Assembly: GCA_020833025.1 (NCBI GenBank)
Contig: JAJHRB010000049.1
Location: forward strand, 1-11,326
Reading direction: 5' to 3'
Length of the DNA: 11,326 nt
DNA from: Thermoproteaceae archaeon
GTDB taxonomy: Archaea > Thermoproteota > Thermoprotei > Thermoproteales > Thermoproteaceae
Positions 302 through 7,496 of this stretch are shown here, piece after piece; position 1 is the stretch's first letter; each line of letters begins with the position of its first letter. Below the pieces are notes generated by a model, which worked only from the letters and a program-made list of their open reading frames with translations, did no database searches and was not told the DNA's origin. Position numbers and translations under genes: made by a program.

Positions 302-3139
302 GTGAGCGAGCACGCGCAGTTCTTCACCAAGCTGGCGGAGAAGTGGCAGGCGAGGTGGAGGGAGGCCGGGGTCTTCGAGCCCGAGCCGGCTCCAGGGACC
401 CCGAAGTTCTTCATAACGGCGGCGTATCCCTACCCCAACGGCGTGGTGCACATAGGCCACGGCAGGACCTACCTCATTGCCGACATACTGGCCAGGTTCC
501 ACAGGCATCTCGGCCGCGTCACGCTGTTCCCCATGGCGTTTCACTACACGGGAACTCCAATTCTAACAGTCGCCGAGGCAATCGCCGCTGGGGACGGGAG
601 GACAATAGAGGAGTACATGACGCTGTACGACGTGCCCCGCGAGGAGATAGAGAGAATGAGGGACCCGCACTACCTGGCCCGCTACTTCCACGAGCGCTCG
701 AAGCGCGCGATGGAGATGCTCGGCCTCAGCATTGACTGGTCGAGAGAGTTCACCACAATAGACCCGGAGTACCAGCGCTTCATCCAGTGGCAGTTCAAGA
801 AGCTCAGAGACGGGGGGCTGATATCCCGGGGCGCGCACCCGGTCGGCTGGTGCCCGCGCCACTCAATGCCCGTGGGGGCCCACGACACTAAGGACGACAA
901 GGAGCCCGAGATCGTGAAGTGGACGCTTATATACTTCGCCGACCGCGAGGGGCTCGCGCTCCCCGCGGCAACTCTCAGGCCCGAGACAGTGCTCGGCGTC
1001 ACGAACGTCTGGGTCAACCCGGACGCCAAGTACGTCATCGCCGAGTACAACGGGAGGGCCGTTGTCGTGAGCCGCGACGCCGCCCGCCGCCTGTCATTCC
1101 ACGGCGGCATCAAGGTACTGCGCGAGGTCCGCGGCAGCTGGATTCTGGGGCGCGAGGTGCAGAACCCCGTGACTGGCGAGTGGGTGCCTGTCTACGGGGC
1201 CAAGTTCGTGGACCCGGGAGTCGGCACGGGCGTCGTCATGTCCGTGCCCGCCCACGCGCCGTACGACTACGTTGCGCTGCGGGAGCTCGGCAGGCTCAGG
1301 CTCATCCCGCTGATACGGGTTGAGGGCTACGGAGAGTGCCCCGCGAGAGATGTCGTGGAGCGGATGGGCATAAAGAGCCAGACAGACCCGCTCCTCGAGG
1401 ATGCGACGAGGGAGGTCTACCTGGCCGAGCACAGCAGGGGCGTGGTGCGGGAGGACGTGGCAGAGCGCGTCGGCATGCACCTCGGCGAGCCAGCCCGGTC
1501 GATGCTGCGCGCCGCGTTCAGGATATTCTTCGCGGGAAGGCCGGTGAGGGGGGCGCGCGAGTTCATTGCAAGATGGCTTGTCGAGTCGGGCCTCGGCGGC
1601 GTGATGTACGACATAGCTAACAAGCCAGTGTACTGCAGGTGCGGCGCGGAGATTGTCGTCAAGGTGCTGGAAGACCAGTGGTTCATCAATTACGGGGACC
1701 GCAGGTGGAAGGAGGCCGCGCGCGAGCTCGTGAGCGGCATGACGATGGTCCCCGCCGAGGCCAGGGCGCAGATGCTCGCCACAATTGACTGGCTCGACAA
1801 GCGCGCGTGCGCCAGGACTCGCGGGCTCGGCACGCCGCTGCCGTGGGATCGGGGCTGGGTGATAGAGAGCCTTAGCGACTCCACAATCTACATGGCGTTC
1901 TACACAGTGATAAAGAAAATAAGGCGCCTCGGGCTTAGAGCCGAGCAGCTCACCGAGGAGTTCTGGGACTACGTGCTGCTCGGGCGGGGGGACGCTGAGG
2001 AGGTATCACGGAGGACAGGCGTGCCCGCGAGCGCGCTGAGGGCCGTGCGCGAGGAGTTTGAGTACTGGTACCCGCTTGACTCCAGAAATTCGGGCAAGGA
2101 CCTGGTGCCGAACCACCTGACGTTCTTCGTGCTTCACCACGCTGCAATATTCCCGAGGGACAAGTGGCCGAGGCAGATAGTCGCGAACGGCTGGGTGCTT
2201 AGAGAGGGAGAGAAGATGTCCAAGTCTAGGCGGAACGTGCTCCCGCTGGACAAGGCCGTCGAGATGTACGGCCCGGACCCCCTCAGAGCGGCGCTGGCCG
2301 TGTCTGCAGAGGTGGAGCAGGATCTCGACTTCAGGGACGCGGAGGCGAGGAGGATCGCGCAGCACCTCGCGTCAATTTACAGCCTTGCGCAGAGAGTGAT
2401 CCAGACGGCCGAGGACAGAGAGCCGGCGTGGCCTGACTACTGGCTGGTTTCAGAGATCGCGCGCGTAATCGATAGGGCTAGGGACGCGTACGAGAGGGTC
2501 AGAATTAGGCAGGCCGCCGTCGACGTGCTCTACAACGCAAAGTCCGTGTTCGAGCAGTACCTCTCGATGGTGGAGAGGCCGTCGAGGCTCGCGCTAGAGG
2601 CGCTAAGGGCGTGGATCGTGGCCATGGAGCCAATAGTCCCCCACCTGGCGGAAGAGCTCTGGGCGGCGGCCGGCGGCAGGGGCCTCGCCGCGACGGCGCC
2701 CTGGCCGGGGCTCAAGCCGGACCCCGCGGCAGTGCTGGCCAGGAGGTACGTGGACATGCTCGTGGAGGACATCAAGAGCATACCGGCGTTTAAGCGCGGC
2801 GCGAGGAGGGTCGTGATATACGTCAACCGCAATTTCTCGCTGCTCAAGGCGGCGCTGAGCGGTGGCGCGAAGTCCCTGACGGCCTCAGGCGTCAGCACGC
2901 AGGCCGCCGCCCGTCTCGCGGGACTTGCGAGGTCCCTCAGCGAGGAGGTCAAGTCGCTGGTCATGAGCGTCGAGAGCTTTGACGAGCTAGAGGTGCTGAG
3001 GTCCTACAGAGCCTACCTGGAGAGAGCTCTCGGCGCTGCCGTTGAAGTGTACGGCTCGGACGACCCGCAGGCTCCCGATCTCGGCGGCAAGAAGGCCGCG
3101 GCGCTGCCCCTCAAGCCTGGAGTTTACATTGCCTCCTGA
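302..3139 (+). CDS. leuS: Leucyl-tRNA synthetase (archaeal type)
   Basis: 945 aa. Class I HIGH motif (YPYPNGVVHIGH), KMSKS, CP1 editing motifs ATLRPET and GTGVVMSVPAHAPYD, archaeal C-terminal ALPLKPG. Confidence 0.97.
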   Translation: MSEHAQFFTKLAEKWQARWREAGVFEPEPAPGTPKFFITAAYPYPNGVVHIGHGRTYLIADILARFHRHLGRVTLFPMAFHYTGTPILTVAEAIAAGDGRTIEEYMTLYDVPREEIERMRDPHYLARYFHERSKRAMEMLGLSIDWSREFTTIDPEYQRFIQWQFKKLRDGGLISRGAHPVGWCPRHSMPVGAHDTKDDKEPEIVKWTLIYFADREGLALPAATLRPETVLGVTNVWVNPDAKYVIAEYNGRAVVVSRDAARRLSFHGGIKVLREVRGSWILGREVQNPVTGEWVPVYGAKFVDPGVGTGVVMSVPAHAPYDYVALRELGRLRLIPLIRVEGYGECPARDVVERMGIKSQTDPLLEDATREVYLAEHSRGVVREDVAERVGMHLGEPARSMLRAAFRIFFAGRPVRGAREFIARWLVESGLGGVMYDIANKPVYCRCGAEIVVKVLEDQWFINYGDRRWKEAARELVSGMTMVPAEARAQMLATIDWLDKRACARTRGLGTPLPWDRGWVIESLSDSTIYMAFYTVIKKIRRLGLRAEQLTEEFWDYVLLGRGDAEEVSRRTGVPASALRAVREEFEYWYPLDSRNSGKDLVPNHLTFFVLHHAAIFPRDKWPRQIVANGWVLREGEKMSKSRRNVLPLDKAVEMYGPDPLRAALAVSAEVEQDLDFRDAEARRIAQHLASIYSLAQRVIQTAEDREPAWPDYWLVSEIARVIDRARDAYERVRIRQAAVDVLYNAKSVFEQYLSMVERPSRLALEALRAWIVAMEPIVPHLAEELWAAAGGRGLAATAPWPGLKPDPAAVLARRYVDMLVEDIKSIPAFKRGARRVVIYVNRNFSLLKAALSGGAKSLTASGVSTQAAARLAGLARSLSEEVKSLVMSVESFDELEVLRSYRAYLERALGAAVEVYGSDDPQAPDLGGKKAAALPLKPGVYIAS

Positions 3140-3148
3140 CAGCCGAGG

Positions 3149-6100
3149 TCAGGACTGGGGCGGCGCTAGCCGCGGCAGCACTTTCTCTGAAAACTCGCCG
3201 AAGAGCTCGCTCAGGGCGCGCTCGTAGCCGAGCCTCCCTGCCTCCACGGCGTCCATGTACTGCTCGACTACTCTCGTCCTCTCCTCGCTTATCAAGTCGC
3301 CGAAGCTCTCCTCCAGGAAGCGGTAGACCTCTATCCCGCGCCTCGTCGGCACCATTAGCCTCCTGCGCCCGGCGACGTAGACATAGTACCTCCTCGCCAG
3401 CACCTGGAGAATTCTGGCGTACGTGCTGGGCCTGCCTATGCCTCTCTGCCTCATCAGCGCGAGTACCTCCGCCTGTGACAGCAAGCGCCTGACCTTGCGG
3501 CACCTCCTCACCGCCGCGCTCAGCGTGCCGGTGGGAAGCTCGGGCTCGACGCGCGTGACGCGGTACACGGCCTGAAAGCCCTGCTGCTTCACGCCGACAG
3601 CCCTCTCGACCTCCACAACCGCGCCGCCTGCCTCGATTGCATACCTGGCGATCTCAACCACGCCGGGCTCCATCTGGCTGGCCATGAAGCGCCTGAAGAT
3701 AAGGTCGTAGAGCCTGTAGTGGTCTCTCGCGAGGCGTATTGCCAGCTGCAGGGCGCCCGCGCTGACGAGCCCGCGGAGCTCGTCCACATCGAGAGGCCTC
3801 GTCGGCCTTATGGCCTCGTGCGCCCCCTCTGACTCCTCCCCCCACGCTCTCGGCCTGAACGCCGACTCGCCGAACTTTCTCACTATGTACTCCCTGGCAA
3901 TGGATATGCCCGCCGTGGAGACTCTCTTGCTGTCCGTCCTGTGATACGTTATCAGGCCGCTCTCGAAGAGGTCCTGCGCCACTCTCATGGCATGCTCTGC
4001 CGACATTCCGAGCCTCTCCACGGCATCTCTCAGCATCTCGTCCGTCGTGTAGGGCGGCGGCGGGTTTATGACTCTCTCTGACCTCTCCACGAGCCTTATG
4101 GTGACCTGCCTGCTCCTCCTCAGCGCGACGGCGGCCGCCTCCGGGACGCGCAGTCTCAGCACGCTGCCGTCCACCTCGAGCTCGACGCTGTACACAGCAT
4201 TCTTGCGCGACTCCTCGTAGCTCCTCACTATCCAGCCCAGCACTGGCGTCTGCACCCTGCCCGCGGATAGGTTCGGGCTGCCGTACCTTGTCTGCAGTAT
4301 CTTGCTCAGGCCGAAGCCCAGCCACCTGTCCTCGAGCCTCCTCACTATCTGGGCCTCGGCGAGCGAGTAGCTGACTGACCTCGGGCTGGACAGCGCCTTG
4401 AGTATTGCCCTCCTCGTGACTTCGTGGAATTCTATTCTCTCCACGCTAGAGGCGTAAGGCCGGAGGGCTAGGTAGAGGTCGAAGGCTATCTTCTCCCCCT
4501 CGGAGTCGGGATCCGTGCCTATCAGCACCCTGTCCACCTCAGCCGCAACGTCCCTGAGTATGGATATCACATCGAGGGGCCTGCAGCCGGGCGGCACGTC
4601 GGCATCGTCGACATAAGCGCCGCCCCTGCACCTCCATATTTTGTTGTAGACAGGCACGAAGTCGCCGCCCCTGACCGGCACCGCGTACTCCTCGGCGTCG
4701 TAGCCGTCGTGCCTGAATGTGCCGAACCACTTTAAGAGCGTCTCGCGCTCGCCGGGGTCCACCTTCCTCAGCGAGGTGGGCAGCTCGTAAACGTGGCCGA
4801 GCGACGCCACTATTATGAGCACGGCGCTGCCAGTCGAGACCTCGTATGCCGGCAGGCCCCCCACGAGCAGCACGCTGGGCCTGCCGAAAAACCGCGCGAT
4901 TGTCCTCGCCTTGGTCGGCGACTCGACCACAACCAATACCGTCTTCATGAGGTCGGCGCCGGCCTCCGCCGTCACCCTGCCCGACACTAGGTCGCGTATC
5001 AGTCTTCTGTCCCTGTCCACCTCGCTCAGAATGGCGTCGAGGTCGACCTCGCCGATATGCCTGAACTCCGCCTCCTCGAACCTCAGCTTGAGCTCCCTCT
5101 GGAGCGCGCGGAATGCCTTCCAGTCGTCGACCAGCGCAATGCTGAGCCCCTTGGAGAGCCCGCCGGCGTAGAGCCTTGACGTGCGCCCGCTGCCCTGCAC
5201 GTACGTCGTCACGTCGGGCACGAGCACGTAGAGCTCGCCGTCTATCACGGCGAGCCTGACCTCTGCCGATGTCTCAATTGCCCTCCTGACGTCCTCGCTC
5301 TTGAGCAGCTCCCCCGCGAACTCGACGGCAGACCTCGCGACGCTCACGGCGTGTCTCTCGAACTCCGTGAGCCCGGCGCCCTCAACGGCCTTCTTAACGG
5401 CCTCTTGGACGCTCCGGGCGTACGGCGCTAGCCTCCTCAGCTGCCCAATCAGCCTGTCCGCCCTCAGCTTCGCATCCCCCGAGAGAGCCTGCCTGACGTT
5501 GTAGAGGAACGTGAGGTATGCGTGCACGGAGAACTCCTCGAGCCTCACCCTGAACTTGTACTTCGGGATCCCGACGAACACGACATACCTTATCACGTGC
5601 GGGAGGTCTAGCCCCCTGACAAGCGCCGATCTGGCAGACGCCATGCCGACGAGTATCGAGAGCTCGCCCCTCTCGAACTGCTCCAGCACCCTGCGCCTCG
5701 GCCTGAAGAGGTGCTCGGCCGGTATGCCCTCCTCCCTCGCCCTGACCACTATCCTCTCGCCCAGCTCTCTGTCCTGCACGTAAATTATCCCCCCGGGGCC
5801 CAGCCTCCTCACGAGCTGCACCACCTGCGCGACGGCGTCGCTTGACATCTCAACGTATAGATCGGCGACGTTGCGGAGCCCCTCGGCCCTGCCGCCCACG
5901 TCAAATCCCAGGATCTCCCTGAATAGCAGCAGTTTGGCAGTCCGCCGGGCCTTGGCGAGAGCGCCCGATGCCACGAAGGTGCCGATCTTCAGCTCGTCCA
6001 CCCGCCGCCTCAGCGCGTCCCTCATGCTGTCGATCTCGCGCTCTATGCGCTCCGCGTCCTCGGCCCTGCCGGCAATCTCGGCCTCACGCAGCCGCCTCAG

Positions 6101-6841
6101 CCTGTCTATCAGCTCCGCGGCGGCCCTCAGCACCTCGTCGTCAACGCCGAGAAGCTTCAGAATTCTGTCGACGTTCTTGCTCGTTGCCCTGAGAATGCTG
6201 TCGACGTCATCGGCGGCCACGAAGCCGAATTTGTGCCGGCTTAGCAAGTCAAAGCGGCGGGACAGGAGCGCCGAGGTCACGATCAGCACGTCAAAGTCCC
6301 CCCGCTCTACGGCCTCGAGGGCCTCCCTCCTCTCCCTCTCCGTCAGCATGGAGTGGTAGGCAATTGCCCTCACGCGGACGCTTGCCCTCTCGGCGTAGGC
6401 GAGCAGGCGCTTGTGCGCCTGGTGGGCGAGGGCCGACGTCGGGAACACCAGCAGCGTCTTGCGCCACTGCCGCGCGGCGTAGATCGCCGCGACGAGGAGG
6501 AATGTCGTCTTGCCGGATCCGGTCGGCGCGACTATTGCGAAGCTCCTCCCCCTAACGAAGCGCCTGGCCCAGAGTCTCTGGGCTCCCCACATCTCGCAGC
6601 CCACGGCGGACTTGAAGAGAGACGAGAACTCCTCGTACCTCTCGAGATACTCGGCGATCCGGGCGAGGCCCCTGAGCCTCCCGCGCTCCCTCAGCAAGCT
6701 CACGAGCTCTCTCATGGACTTGGCCCCGAGACCCTCTGGAAGGCACTCGTAACAGGGAAGGCCGGCTGCCAGCCTGTCCGACGTGATGGGGCCCCCGCAG
6801 TTGGGGCAGCTGTGCAGATACACGACGGGCGGCGGCCTCAC
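3149..6841 (-). CDS. rgy: Reverse gyrase
   Basis: 1230 aa. N-terminal Zn finger CPNC..CYEC, Walker A APTGSGKT, DDVD, QGSGRTSR helicase motif VI, Toprim VESPTKARTI and TDPDSEGEKI, catalytic GLITYHRTDS, GIGRPSTY. Confidence 0.97.
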   Translation of the reverse strand: MRPPPVVYLHSCPNCGGPITSDRLAAGLPCYECLPEGLGAKSMRELVSLLRERGRLRGLARIAEYLERYEEFSSLFKSAVGCEMWGAQRLWARRFVRGRSFAIVAPTGSGKTTFLLVAAIYAARQWRKTLLVFPTSALAHQAHKRLLAYAERASVRVRAIAYHSMLTERERREALEAVERGDFDVLIVTSALLSRRFDLLSRHKFGFVAADDVDSILRATSKNVDRILKLLGVDDEVLRAAAELIDRLRRLREAEIAGRAEDAERIEREIDSMRDALRRRVDELKIGTFVASGALAKARRTAKLLLFREILGFDVGGRAEGLRNVADLYVEMSSDAVAQVVQLVRRLGPGGIIYVQDRELGERIVVRAREEGIPAEHLFRPRRRVLEQFERGELSILVGMASARSALVRGLDLPHVIRYVVFVGIPKYKFRVRLEEFSVHAYLTFLYNVRQALSGDAKLRADRLIGQLRRLAPYARSVQEAVKKAVEGAGLTEFERHAVSVARSAVEFAGELLKSEDVRRAIETSAEVRLAVIDGELYVLVPDVTTYVQGSGRTSRLYAGGLSKGLSIALVDDWKAFRALQRELKLRFEEAEFRHIGEVDLDAILSEVDRDRRLIRDLVSGRVTAEAGADLMKTVLVVVESPTKARTIARFFGRPSVLLVGGLPAYEVSTGSAVLIIVASLGHVYELPTSLRKVDPGERETLLKWFGTFRHDGYDAEEYAVPVRGGDFVPVYNKIWRCRGGAYVDDADVPPGCRPLDVISILRDVAAEVDRVLIGTDPDSEGEKIAFDLYLALRPYASSVERIEFHEVTRRAILKALSSPRSVSYSLAEAQIVRRLEDRWLGFGLSKILQTRYGSPNLSAGRVQTPVLGWIVRSYEESRKNAVYSVELEVDGSVLRLRVPEAAAVALRRSRQVTIRLVERSERVINPPPPYTTDEMLRDAVERLGMSAEHAMRVAQDLFESGLITYHRTDSKRVSTAGISIAREYIVRKFGESAFRPRAWGEESEGAHEAIRPTRPLDVDELRGLVSAGALQLAIRLARDHYRLYDLIFRRFMASQMEPGVVEIARYAIEAGGAVVEVERAVGVKQQGFQAVYRVTRVEPELPTGTLSAAVRRCRKVRRLLSQAEVLALMRQRGIGRPSTYARILQVLARRYYVYVAGRRRLMVPTRRGIEVYRFLEESFGDLISEERTRVVEQYMDAVEAGRLGYERALSELFGEFSEKVLPRLAPPQS

Positions 6842-7124: not shown

Positions 7125-7129
7125 AAAAG
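7125..7129 (-). terminator. Oligo-T terminator after the tRNA-Ile2 half
   Basis: CTTTT directly follows the encoded CCA on the minus strand. Confidence 0.45.
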
Positions 7130-7194
7130 TGGTGGGCCCGCCGGGATTTTTGGGCGGGGCCATCCCCCGAACCCGGGTCCACCCGGTTATGAGC
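7130..7194 (-). tRNA. 3' half (positions 31-76) of tRNA-Ile2(CAU), with a 19-nt intron at 56/57 (7168-7150); candidate split tRNA fragment
   Basis: Minus strand reads G CTCATAA CCGGG TGGAC CCGGG TTC [GGGGGATGGCCCCGCCCAA] AAAT CCCGG CGGGCCC A CCA, giving a perfect T-arm, acceptor 3' strand and encoded CCA. No D-arm or 5' acceptor strand lies upstream. Ile2 rather than Met is inferred from the GGCTCATAACC anticodon arm and the GGGCCC-type acceptor. Confidence 0.88.
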
Positions 7195-7238
7195 CACGCC
7201 GCAGGCGGCGGCCGGTCCCGGCTCACTGTCTCTCCCCT

Positions 7239-7252
7239 CTATTTAAGCCTTT
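7239..7252 (-). promoter_or_regulatory. BRE-TATA promoter of the tRNA-Ile2 3' half
   Basis: AAAGGCTTAAATAG. Predicted start ~7216-7219, leaving a ~22-25 nt leader before G31. Confidence 0.75.
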
Positions 7253-7270
7253 GCTGCGCGGCGCCTGCCG

Positions 7271-7284
7271 GAACGCTTAAATAA
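7271..7284 (+). promoter_or_regulatory. BRE-TATA promoter of the tRNA-Arg 3' half
   Basis: GAACGCTTAAATAA. Predicted start ~7307-7309, leaving a ~19-21 nt leader before C31. Confidence 0.75.
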
Positions 7285-7327
7285 TCGCGCGCGGGTTGCG
7301 GCAATCCCGCGGGCGCGAGCCGCCGAG

Positions 7328-7391
7328 CCTTCTAAGCCGTAGGCCGGGGCGCGGGCGGACGTCGTGGGTTCGAATCCCACCGGGCCCGCCA
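7328..7391 (+). tRNA. 3' half (positions 31-76) of tRNA-Arg(UCU), with an 18-nt intron at 45/46 (7343-7360); candidate split tRNA fragment
   Basis: C CTTCTAA GCCGT AG [GCCGGGGCGCGGGCGGAC] GTC GTGGG TTCGAAT CCCAC CGGGCCC G CCA, giving a perfect T-arm, acceptor 3' strand and CCA. No D-arm or 5' acceptor strand lies between the promoter and the anticodon loop. Confidence 0.88.
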
Positions 7392-7392
7392 A

Positions 7393-7480
7393 GCCTCAGC
7401 TGTTGCCGCGACATATCACTCGTGAGTTAAGGAGGGGCGGGCTCTCCTCACGCCCTCAGTGGTACTCCGGCTCTTCACCG
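7393..7480 (-). ncRNA. Box C/D guide sRNA candidate (three C-guide-D units)
   Basis: Minus strand: GTGAAGA - 12 nt - CTGA - GGGC - GTGAGGA - 13 nt - CTTA - 8 nt - GTGATAT - 13 nt - CTGA. Box-to-box spacing matches archaeal C/D RNAs. Confidence 0.6.
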
Positions 7481-7496
7481 CTCCGATCAATCCCCG

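Follow-up and report, generated by a model that had tools for sequence, protein, structure and literature searches.

Architecture of a partial tRNA gene in the window

The window, which is the whole 11,326-nt stretch of DNA analysed here, makes up the entire contig C13, one of the 126 contigs of a short-read MAG (assembly G000; 1.56 Mb, 62.6% GC) with an estimated completeness of 93.9% and no contamination. The window encodes, at 302-3139 (plus strand), a class I aminoacyl-tRNA synthetase that has a Leu-type editing domain and, at 3149-6841 (minus strand), a reverse gyrase; the order of these two genes beside the Ile2 tRNA gene is kept in relatives. The nearest named relative of the reverse gyrase belongs to a MAG labelled Pyrobaculum sp. 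(68% amino-acid identity). Upstream of the reverse gyrase, a promoter-bearing partial tRNA gene with a CAU anticodon, the putative 3′ half of a tRNA-Ile2, is located at 7219-7130 of the minus strand. Its elements are as follows.

7240-7246, minus strand: TATA box TTAAATA of the 3′-half unit, read directly; an A-rich, BRE-like stretch precedes it
7195-7217, minus strand: GC-rich leader of about 23 nt; transcription probably starts near G7217
7169-7194, minus strand: 3′ exon part 1, tRNA nt 31-56, in a register identical to that of the contiguous Ile2 genes of relatives
7194, minus strand: G31
7193-7187, minus strand: anticodon loop C32-A38, with CAU at 7191-7189
7186-7182, minus strand: 3′ strand of the anticodon stem
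7181-7177, minus strand: variable loop (5 nt)
7176-7172, minus strand: 5′ strand of the T stem
7171-7169, minus strand: U54-C56
7150-7168, minus strand: 19-nt cis intron in the T loop at 56/57; its excision gives the T loop of relatives, UUCAAAU
7130-7149, minus strand: 3′ exon part 2, nt 57-76, ending in an encoded CCA
7149-7146, minus strand: A57-U60
7145-7141, minus strand: 3′ strand of the T stem
7140-7134, minus strand: 3′ strand of the acceptor stem, CGGGCCC
7133, minus strand: discriminator A73
7132-7130, minus strand: CCA
7125-7128, minus strand: short T run right after CCA, read directly; possibly an archaeal terminator

The preliminary description of this DNA had a leader running directly into G31 and the CAU loop, and our base-by-base reading of 7219-7130 agrees with it exactly. 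The TTAAATA box at 7246-7240 lies 29 nt upstream of G7217. In this genome, the heptamer YTTWAWW is found 25-35 nt upstream of 23 of 32 tRNA 5′ ends, compared with 0.8% of random positions. Neither ARAGORN nor Rfam at its gathering score called a tRNA at 7219-7130, which is expected since the site holds half a gene interrupted by an intron. The 56/57 intron forms a BHB with a central helix between G51-U54 and GCCC, bulges UCG and AAA, and an inner GGGG/CCCC hairpin. Similar T-loop introns of 17-19 nt at 56/57 occur in at least 12 tRNA genes of G000, which belong to unrelated tRNAs, and are absent from the Ile2 and Met genes of relatives. This distribution suggests a recent spread of one T-loop intron type in G000.

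A second promoter-bearing tRNA 3′ half, belonging to tRNA-Arg(UCU), occupies 7267-7391 of the plus strand in divergent orientation, with just 20 nt between the TATA boxes of the two halves. This Arg half is likewise broken at 30/31, carries in addition an intron in the variable loop, and has a 5′ half with a complementary trailer on contig C89 near 28993 (minus strand). Just downstream of this Arg half, Rfam models of archaeal box C/D sRNAs match 7454-7497 (minus strand) weakly and below threshold (E 0.6-5).

A matching 5′ half on contig C100

The preliminary description had predicted a separate 5′ half with a trailer that pairs with the leader. To find it, all 5′ ends starting with the complement of the acceptor strand (GGGCCCG type) were listed genome-wide. 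Several orphan 5′ halves were present among them, and a single one, on contig C100, has the CCC(G) strand of the anticodon stem. This piece bears a promoter, has the right acceptor and anticodon-stem strands, and ends in a complementary trailer. Its elements, in C100 coordinates, are as follows.

C100:10430-10436: TATA box TTAAATA, at a spacing typical of the tRNA genes of this genome
C100:10465-10533: the 5′ half
C100:10465-10494: exon, nt 1-29
C100:10495-10513: 19-nt intron at 29/30
C100:10514: G30
C100:10515 onwards: trailer

Trailer bases 10516-10517 are complementary to window positions 7202-7201, and 10519-10530 to 7215-7204; the trailer is followed by a TTT run only. No perfect reverse complement of the complete leader was found in the genome, because leader positions 7200-7197 pair with exon nt 25-28 and positions 7196-7195 lie in an unpaired bulge. 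The complementary trailer thus exists as foreseen, but the pairing is shorter than a full-length match, with just about 15 nt of the leader pairing with the trailer. The two halves are at separate loci (C13 and C100), each several kilobases inside its contig, and, judging from sequence, each has a promoter of its own.

The 19 nt that follow C29 can fold into a BHB consisting of a helix between G24-C27 and GCGC, bulges CCA and AGG, and an inner hairpin, and the same structure is recovered in the minimum free energy (MFE) fold of the primary 5′ half. Since these 19 nt match the design of the 29/30 intron of relatives and the MFE fold agrees, the 5′ half keeps an ancestral cis intron, which is followed by G30. 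The preliminary description had proposed that trans- and cis-splicing would both be needed. Both kinds of splicing are predicted here as well, but the count rises from two events to three, because the 5′ half contains its own 29/30 intron.

Predicted geometry of the trans junction and the spliced product

With the 29/30 intron removed, a prerequisite of the trans motif, the two halves form a canonical hBHBh′ structure, which we checked pair by pair. The outer helix h (3 bp) joins G22-G24 to C32-C34, and the central helix H (4 bp) joins C25-C28 to the leader GGCG (7200-7197). Two 3-nt bulges, C29-G30-U and U-G-G31, flank the central helix, the 3′ bulge corresponding to 7196-7194. The abutting inner helix h′ has 2 + 12 bp with a single C·U mismatch, and the leader-trailer duplex also appears in the cofold. 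The energy of this structure is −41.1 kcal/mol, compared with −45.3 kcal/mol for the unconstrained MFE, which favours a slightly different neighbouring register.

In BHB motifs, each strand is cut behind the second base of its bulge. This rule agrees with the intron in the variable loop of this genome's Arg tRNAs, as worked out by hand against a contiguous Arg(CCG) gene. Applied to the hBHBh′ geometry, it places the cuts after G30 and before G31, so the 30/31 breakpoint given in the preliminary description is right. An earlier hand model, in which the junction lay at 29/30 or at 30/31 with an A30·C40 mismatch, was dropped, since comparison with the genes of relatives identifies the nucleotides following C29 as a 29/30 intron that the 5′ half has retained.

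The leader-trailer duplex has an energy of −34.8 kcal/mol, about 2.8 SD beyond that of shuffled leaders (−24 ± 4 kcal/mol). The 12-nt complement is not unique, with 33 twelve-mer matches across this GC-rich genome. Given these matches and the energies of the shuffled leaders, the pairing rests on its context, and the thermodynamics of the duplex would be weak as lone evidence. Exact-pattern scans for the leader-anticodon junction in collections of metagenomes and genomes recovered no independent assembly that has it; two 19-nt matches in these scans were chance hits to unrelated DNA.

When joined in silico, the exons make a 77-nt tRNA, which ARAGORN folds into a perfect cloverleaf in which all four stems are perfect and the anticodon is cat. 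Because a 3′ half and an orphan 5′ half from another contig together give a perfect cloverleaf, the feature is beyond chance. Our reading, to which we assign a probability of about 85%, is that a trans-spliced tRNA-Ile2(CAU) is assembled from a 5′ half encoded on C100 and a 3′ half transcribed independently from 7219-7130 (minus strand). To build its tRNA-Ile2, this hot-spring archaeon would most likely need to ligate two RNAs and excise two further introns.

Contiguous genes in relatives and the ancestral locus

About 25 genes of this tRNA class in relatives were inspected, and all are contiguous. Nearly all of them have a single intron, about 20-35 nt long, at 29/30; an additional intron in the T arm occurs in a few, and two have a D-arm intron instead. 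The 29/30 intron of relatives forms a helix between G24-C27 and GCGY, with two 3-nt bulges and an inner GC hairpin. The Ile2(CAU) genes of Pyrobaculum and Thermoproteus resemble the one in G000 in their near-identical exons, 29/30 intron, BHB design and neighbourhood. They differ from it, however, in being single transcription units with neither a 30/31 interruption nor a 56/57 intron.

The contiguous Ile2 gene of two relatives with complete genomes (G016 and G007) is flanked on one side by homologues of C100:9979-10407 and C100:8501-9904, and on the other by homologues of the reverse gyrase and class I aminoacyl-tRNA synthetase of the window, with one extra gene in between. Two further relatives, G015 and G004, have the C100 side in common. 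In G000, the C100 flanking genes are close upstream of the 5′ half, and the reverse gyrase and synthetase genes close downstream of the 3′ half. The synteny in G016 and G007 therefore indicates that an ancestral locus was broken inside the tRNA gene and that each half kept its old neighbours.

These data bear on the possibility that the 3′ piece is a dead relic (a remnant of integration or rearrangement, for example) and that the unassembled ~6% of the genome contains a functional, contiguous Ile2 gene. The assembly is indeed incomplete, and partial 3′ copies of tRNA-Ser do exist in G000 (C12:11322-11399 and C17:69-143). Unlike the tRNA-Ser fragments, the Ile2 3′ half has a tRNA-type promoter at the right spacing and an intact BHB at its T-loop intron, and its leader is matched to an orphan 5′ half that is equally promoter-bearing. 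Both Ile2 pieces are, moreover, free of mutations relative to the genes of relatives and stand at the ancestral syntenic position. We regard a relic as improbable. The tRNA-Ser fragments themselves are about 10 kb from full genes on the same contigs and look like attachment-site duplications from integrated elements.

Identity of the tRNA and decoding of AUA

Genes with a CAU anticodon are of exactly three kinds in the assembly: initiator tRNA-Met (two identical copies, on C35 and C54), one elongator-type tRNA-Met (C89:48692-48842), and the split piece. This is the set of three that the preliminary description expected, and no others were found. The initiator tRNA has an A1-U72 pair and the GGG/CCC anticodon stem. 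The split tRNA has none of these initiator features, with G1-C72 and an anticodon stem of the CCCGG type. The two initiator genes (C35:8005-8081 and C54:51-127) lie at contig ends with identical upstream and different downstream sequences, and may be either a true duplicate or strain variation within the MAG.

Two elongator-type candidates for Ile2 are left, and the assignments could in principle be reversed, with the split tRNA being elongator tRNA-Met and the C89 gene the real Ile2. Both have CAU and A73, and their anticodon arms are identical. The spliced sequence is, however, about 95% identical to the tRNA-Ile(GAU) of the same genome (C72:22445-22583), from which it departs only at nt 34, at one position of the D loop and at two of the variable loop. 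The two tRNAs agree throughout the acceptor stem, D stem, anticodon stem and T arm, whereas in the C89 tRNA pair 3-70 alone is unchanged and the other six of the seven acceptor-stem pairs differ. The Ile(GAU)-like body recurs in eight relatives, in which tRNA-Ile(GAU) has its acceptor stem, anticodon stem and T arm in common with the split-gene class of CAU tRNA. A Thermoproteales Ile2 has also been reported to score best with an Ile model (PMC8450103). The comparison with paralogues thus supports the assignment of the split tRNA as Ile2 rather than Met, the identity given at the outset, and makes the reversed assignment slightly less probable even than a relic.

Least probable of all is an assembly artefact, in which binning or chimeric contigs give a split look to a gene that is contiguous in the cell: the data do come from a short-read MAG of 126 contigs, and no second assembly with the junction was found in the collections scanned, but both halves lie well away from contig ends, the promoter abuts the leader, the neighbouring tRNA-Arg(UCU) 3′ half has the same design, and leader and trailer are mutually complementary and not continuous, which a misjoin would not create. 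Since the MAG is in 126 contigs and 94% complete, a second copy or a mosaic assembly retains a small probability.

In this 93.9%-complete assembly, we found no contiguous Ile2 gene, which would have contradicted the preliminary description, and neither a tRNA-Ile(UAU) gene nor a tRNA-like UAU stem-loop. A TiaS of 414 aa is encoded on C44; its TCKD, FLD and Zn-ribbon Pfam domains all score above their cut-offs, and the protein scores 193 bits against a strict NCBIfam equivalog cut-off of 600 bits. The use of ATA codons noted for the window is confirmed by 20 and 32 occurrences in its two long ORFs. Across the genome, ATA is the commonest Ile codon, accounting for 43% of Ile codons (19.8 per 1000 codons) and occurring in 555 of 569 long ORFs. 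The split tRNA-Ile2 would be expected to be essential and agmatidine-dependent.

An unbroken paralogue and the origin of the split

The elongator tRNA-Met gene at C89:48692-48842 contains three cis introns, located at 29/30 (20 nt), 30/31 (36 nt, with an 11-bp hairpin) and 56/57, and is missed by ARAGORN. Between the 29/30 and 30/31 introns, G30 is left as a single exon nucleotide. The anticodon arm, the three interruption sites and the BHB registers are as in the split Ile2, and nt 26 covaries with its intron partner (A-U in the C89 tRNA-Met, G-C in the split Ile2). Unlike in the split Ile2, a single gene holds all the interruptions in cis, and its acceptor stem is Met-type. The C89 gene looks like an unbroken counterpart of the state of the Ile2 gene before it was split. 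The intact gene at the same place in relatives and the intron in cis in this paralogue together favour the order "intron first, split later".

A split elongator tRNA-Met is found in a relative of the same genus (locus L036, G011:C6:6870-7220). Its promoter-bearing 3′ half is broken at 29/30, and a few dozen bases separate it from the matching 5′ half, which is on the other strand.

Proposed maturation pathway

Maturation may proceed in four steps. First, the 29/30 intron of the 5′ half would fold into its own BHB and be removed in cis. Second, nt 25-28, freed by this removal, would pair with the leader GGCG (7200-7197) while the trailer anneals to the leader; the splicing endonuclease would then cut the hBHBh′ after G30 and before G31, and RtcB would ligate the exons. 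Third, the 56/57 intron in the T loop would be taken out independently of the other steps. Finally, TiaS would convert C34 into agmatidine, and the Ile-charged tRNA would read AUA. Cis-splicing is placed before trans-splicing because the two BHBs use overlapping exon bases (24-27 and 25-28). Mutually exclusive BHB helices and an exon segment of one nucleotide thus predict an order of splicing that could be tested in vitro. Our literature search on adjacent or nested BHB introns and on one-nucleotide exons returned nothing relevant.

The genome encodes a splicing endonuclease alpha subunit (on C61), together with a weak second, beta-like match, and RtcB. The RtcB gene (C60:4614-7331) is an open frame of 961 aa in which the Pfam match falls into two blocks about 1.3 kb apart, suggesting an intein inside this tRNA ligase.

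We rate it a little better than an even chance that AUA decoding here hangs on obligatorily ordered three-step splicing, in which the cis 29/30 intron leaves first and G30 forms a one-nucleotide exon segment, that the locus is a snapshot of the passage from an intron to a gene split, and that this genome may exceed every one described to date in its number of split tRNAs.

Relation to known split tRNAs

Split tRNAs have been described for iMet, His, Lys(CUU), Gln and Glu in N. equitans, for Gly, Glu and Ala in C. maquilingensis, and for Asp and Lys(CUU) in Desulfurococcales (PMC4390854, PMC3218864, PMC4033280). Split tRNA genes are rare: reviews up to 2015 count some 12 anticodons, spread over seven genomes. 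Split tRNAs were reported to be absent from five sequenced Pyrobaculum species (Chan, Cozen & Lowe 2011, PMC3218864). Ile2 is absent from the published lists, and no later report of a split Ile2 was found in the literature searched.

A close parallel in design is the split tRNA-Lys(CUU) of Staphylothermus marinus, S. hellenicus and Nanoarchaeum equitans (PMC3218864), in which, as here, separate halves are joined at 30/31 through a leader/trailer BHB and relatives suggest a recent break of a contiguous gene. The present case differs in the tRNA, Ile2(CAU), in the host, a Pyrobaculum-like Thermoproteaceae MAG, and in the cis intron that each half carries. [quoted passage not shown] 2009, via PMC4033280 and PMC4390854), also belongs to the Thermoproteales, is free-living and has several tRNAs built from separately transcribed pieces, and its split sites coincide with intron sites of relatives. 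In contrast to its Gly, Glu and Ala tRNAs, the tRNA here is Ile2, no piece is shared, and the break lies one nucleotide (G30) from a retained intron. The split Ile2 fits both the "recently split" view (PMC3218864) and the connection drawn between the positions of splits and of introns (PMC4033280).

For this organism, the commonest Ile codon would be unreadable without the split tRNA-Ile2, for which the 94%-complete assembly offers no back-up gene. Split tRNA genes are central to the debate on whether fragmented tRNA genes are ancestral or derived. The split Ile2 would add a new isoacceptor, from a genus-level group reported to be without split tRNAs, and it comes with unusually clear evidence of the direction of change.
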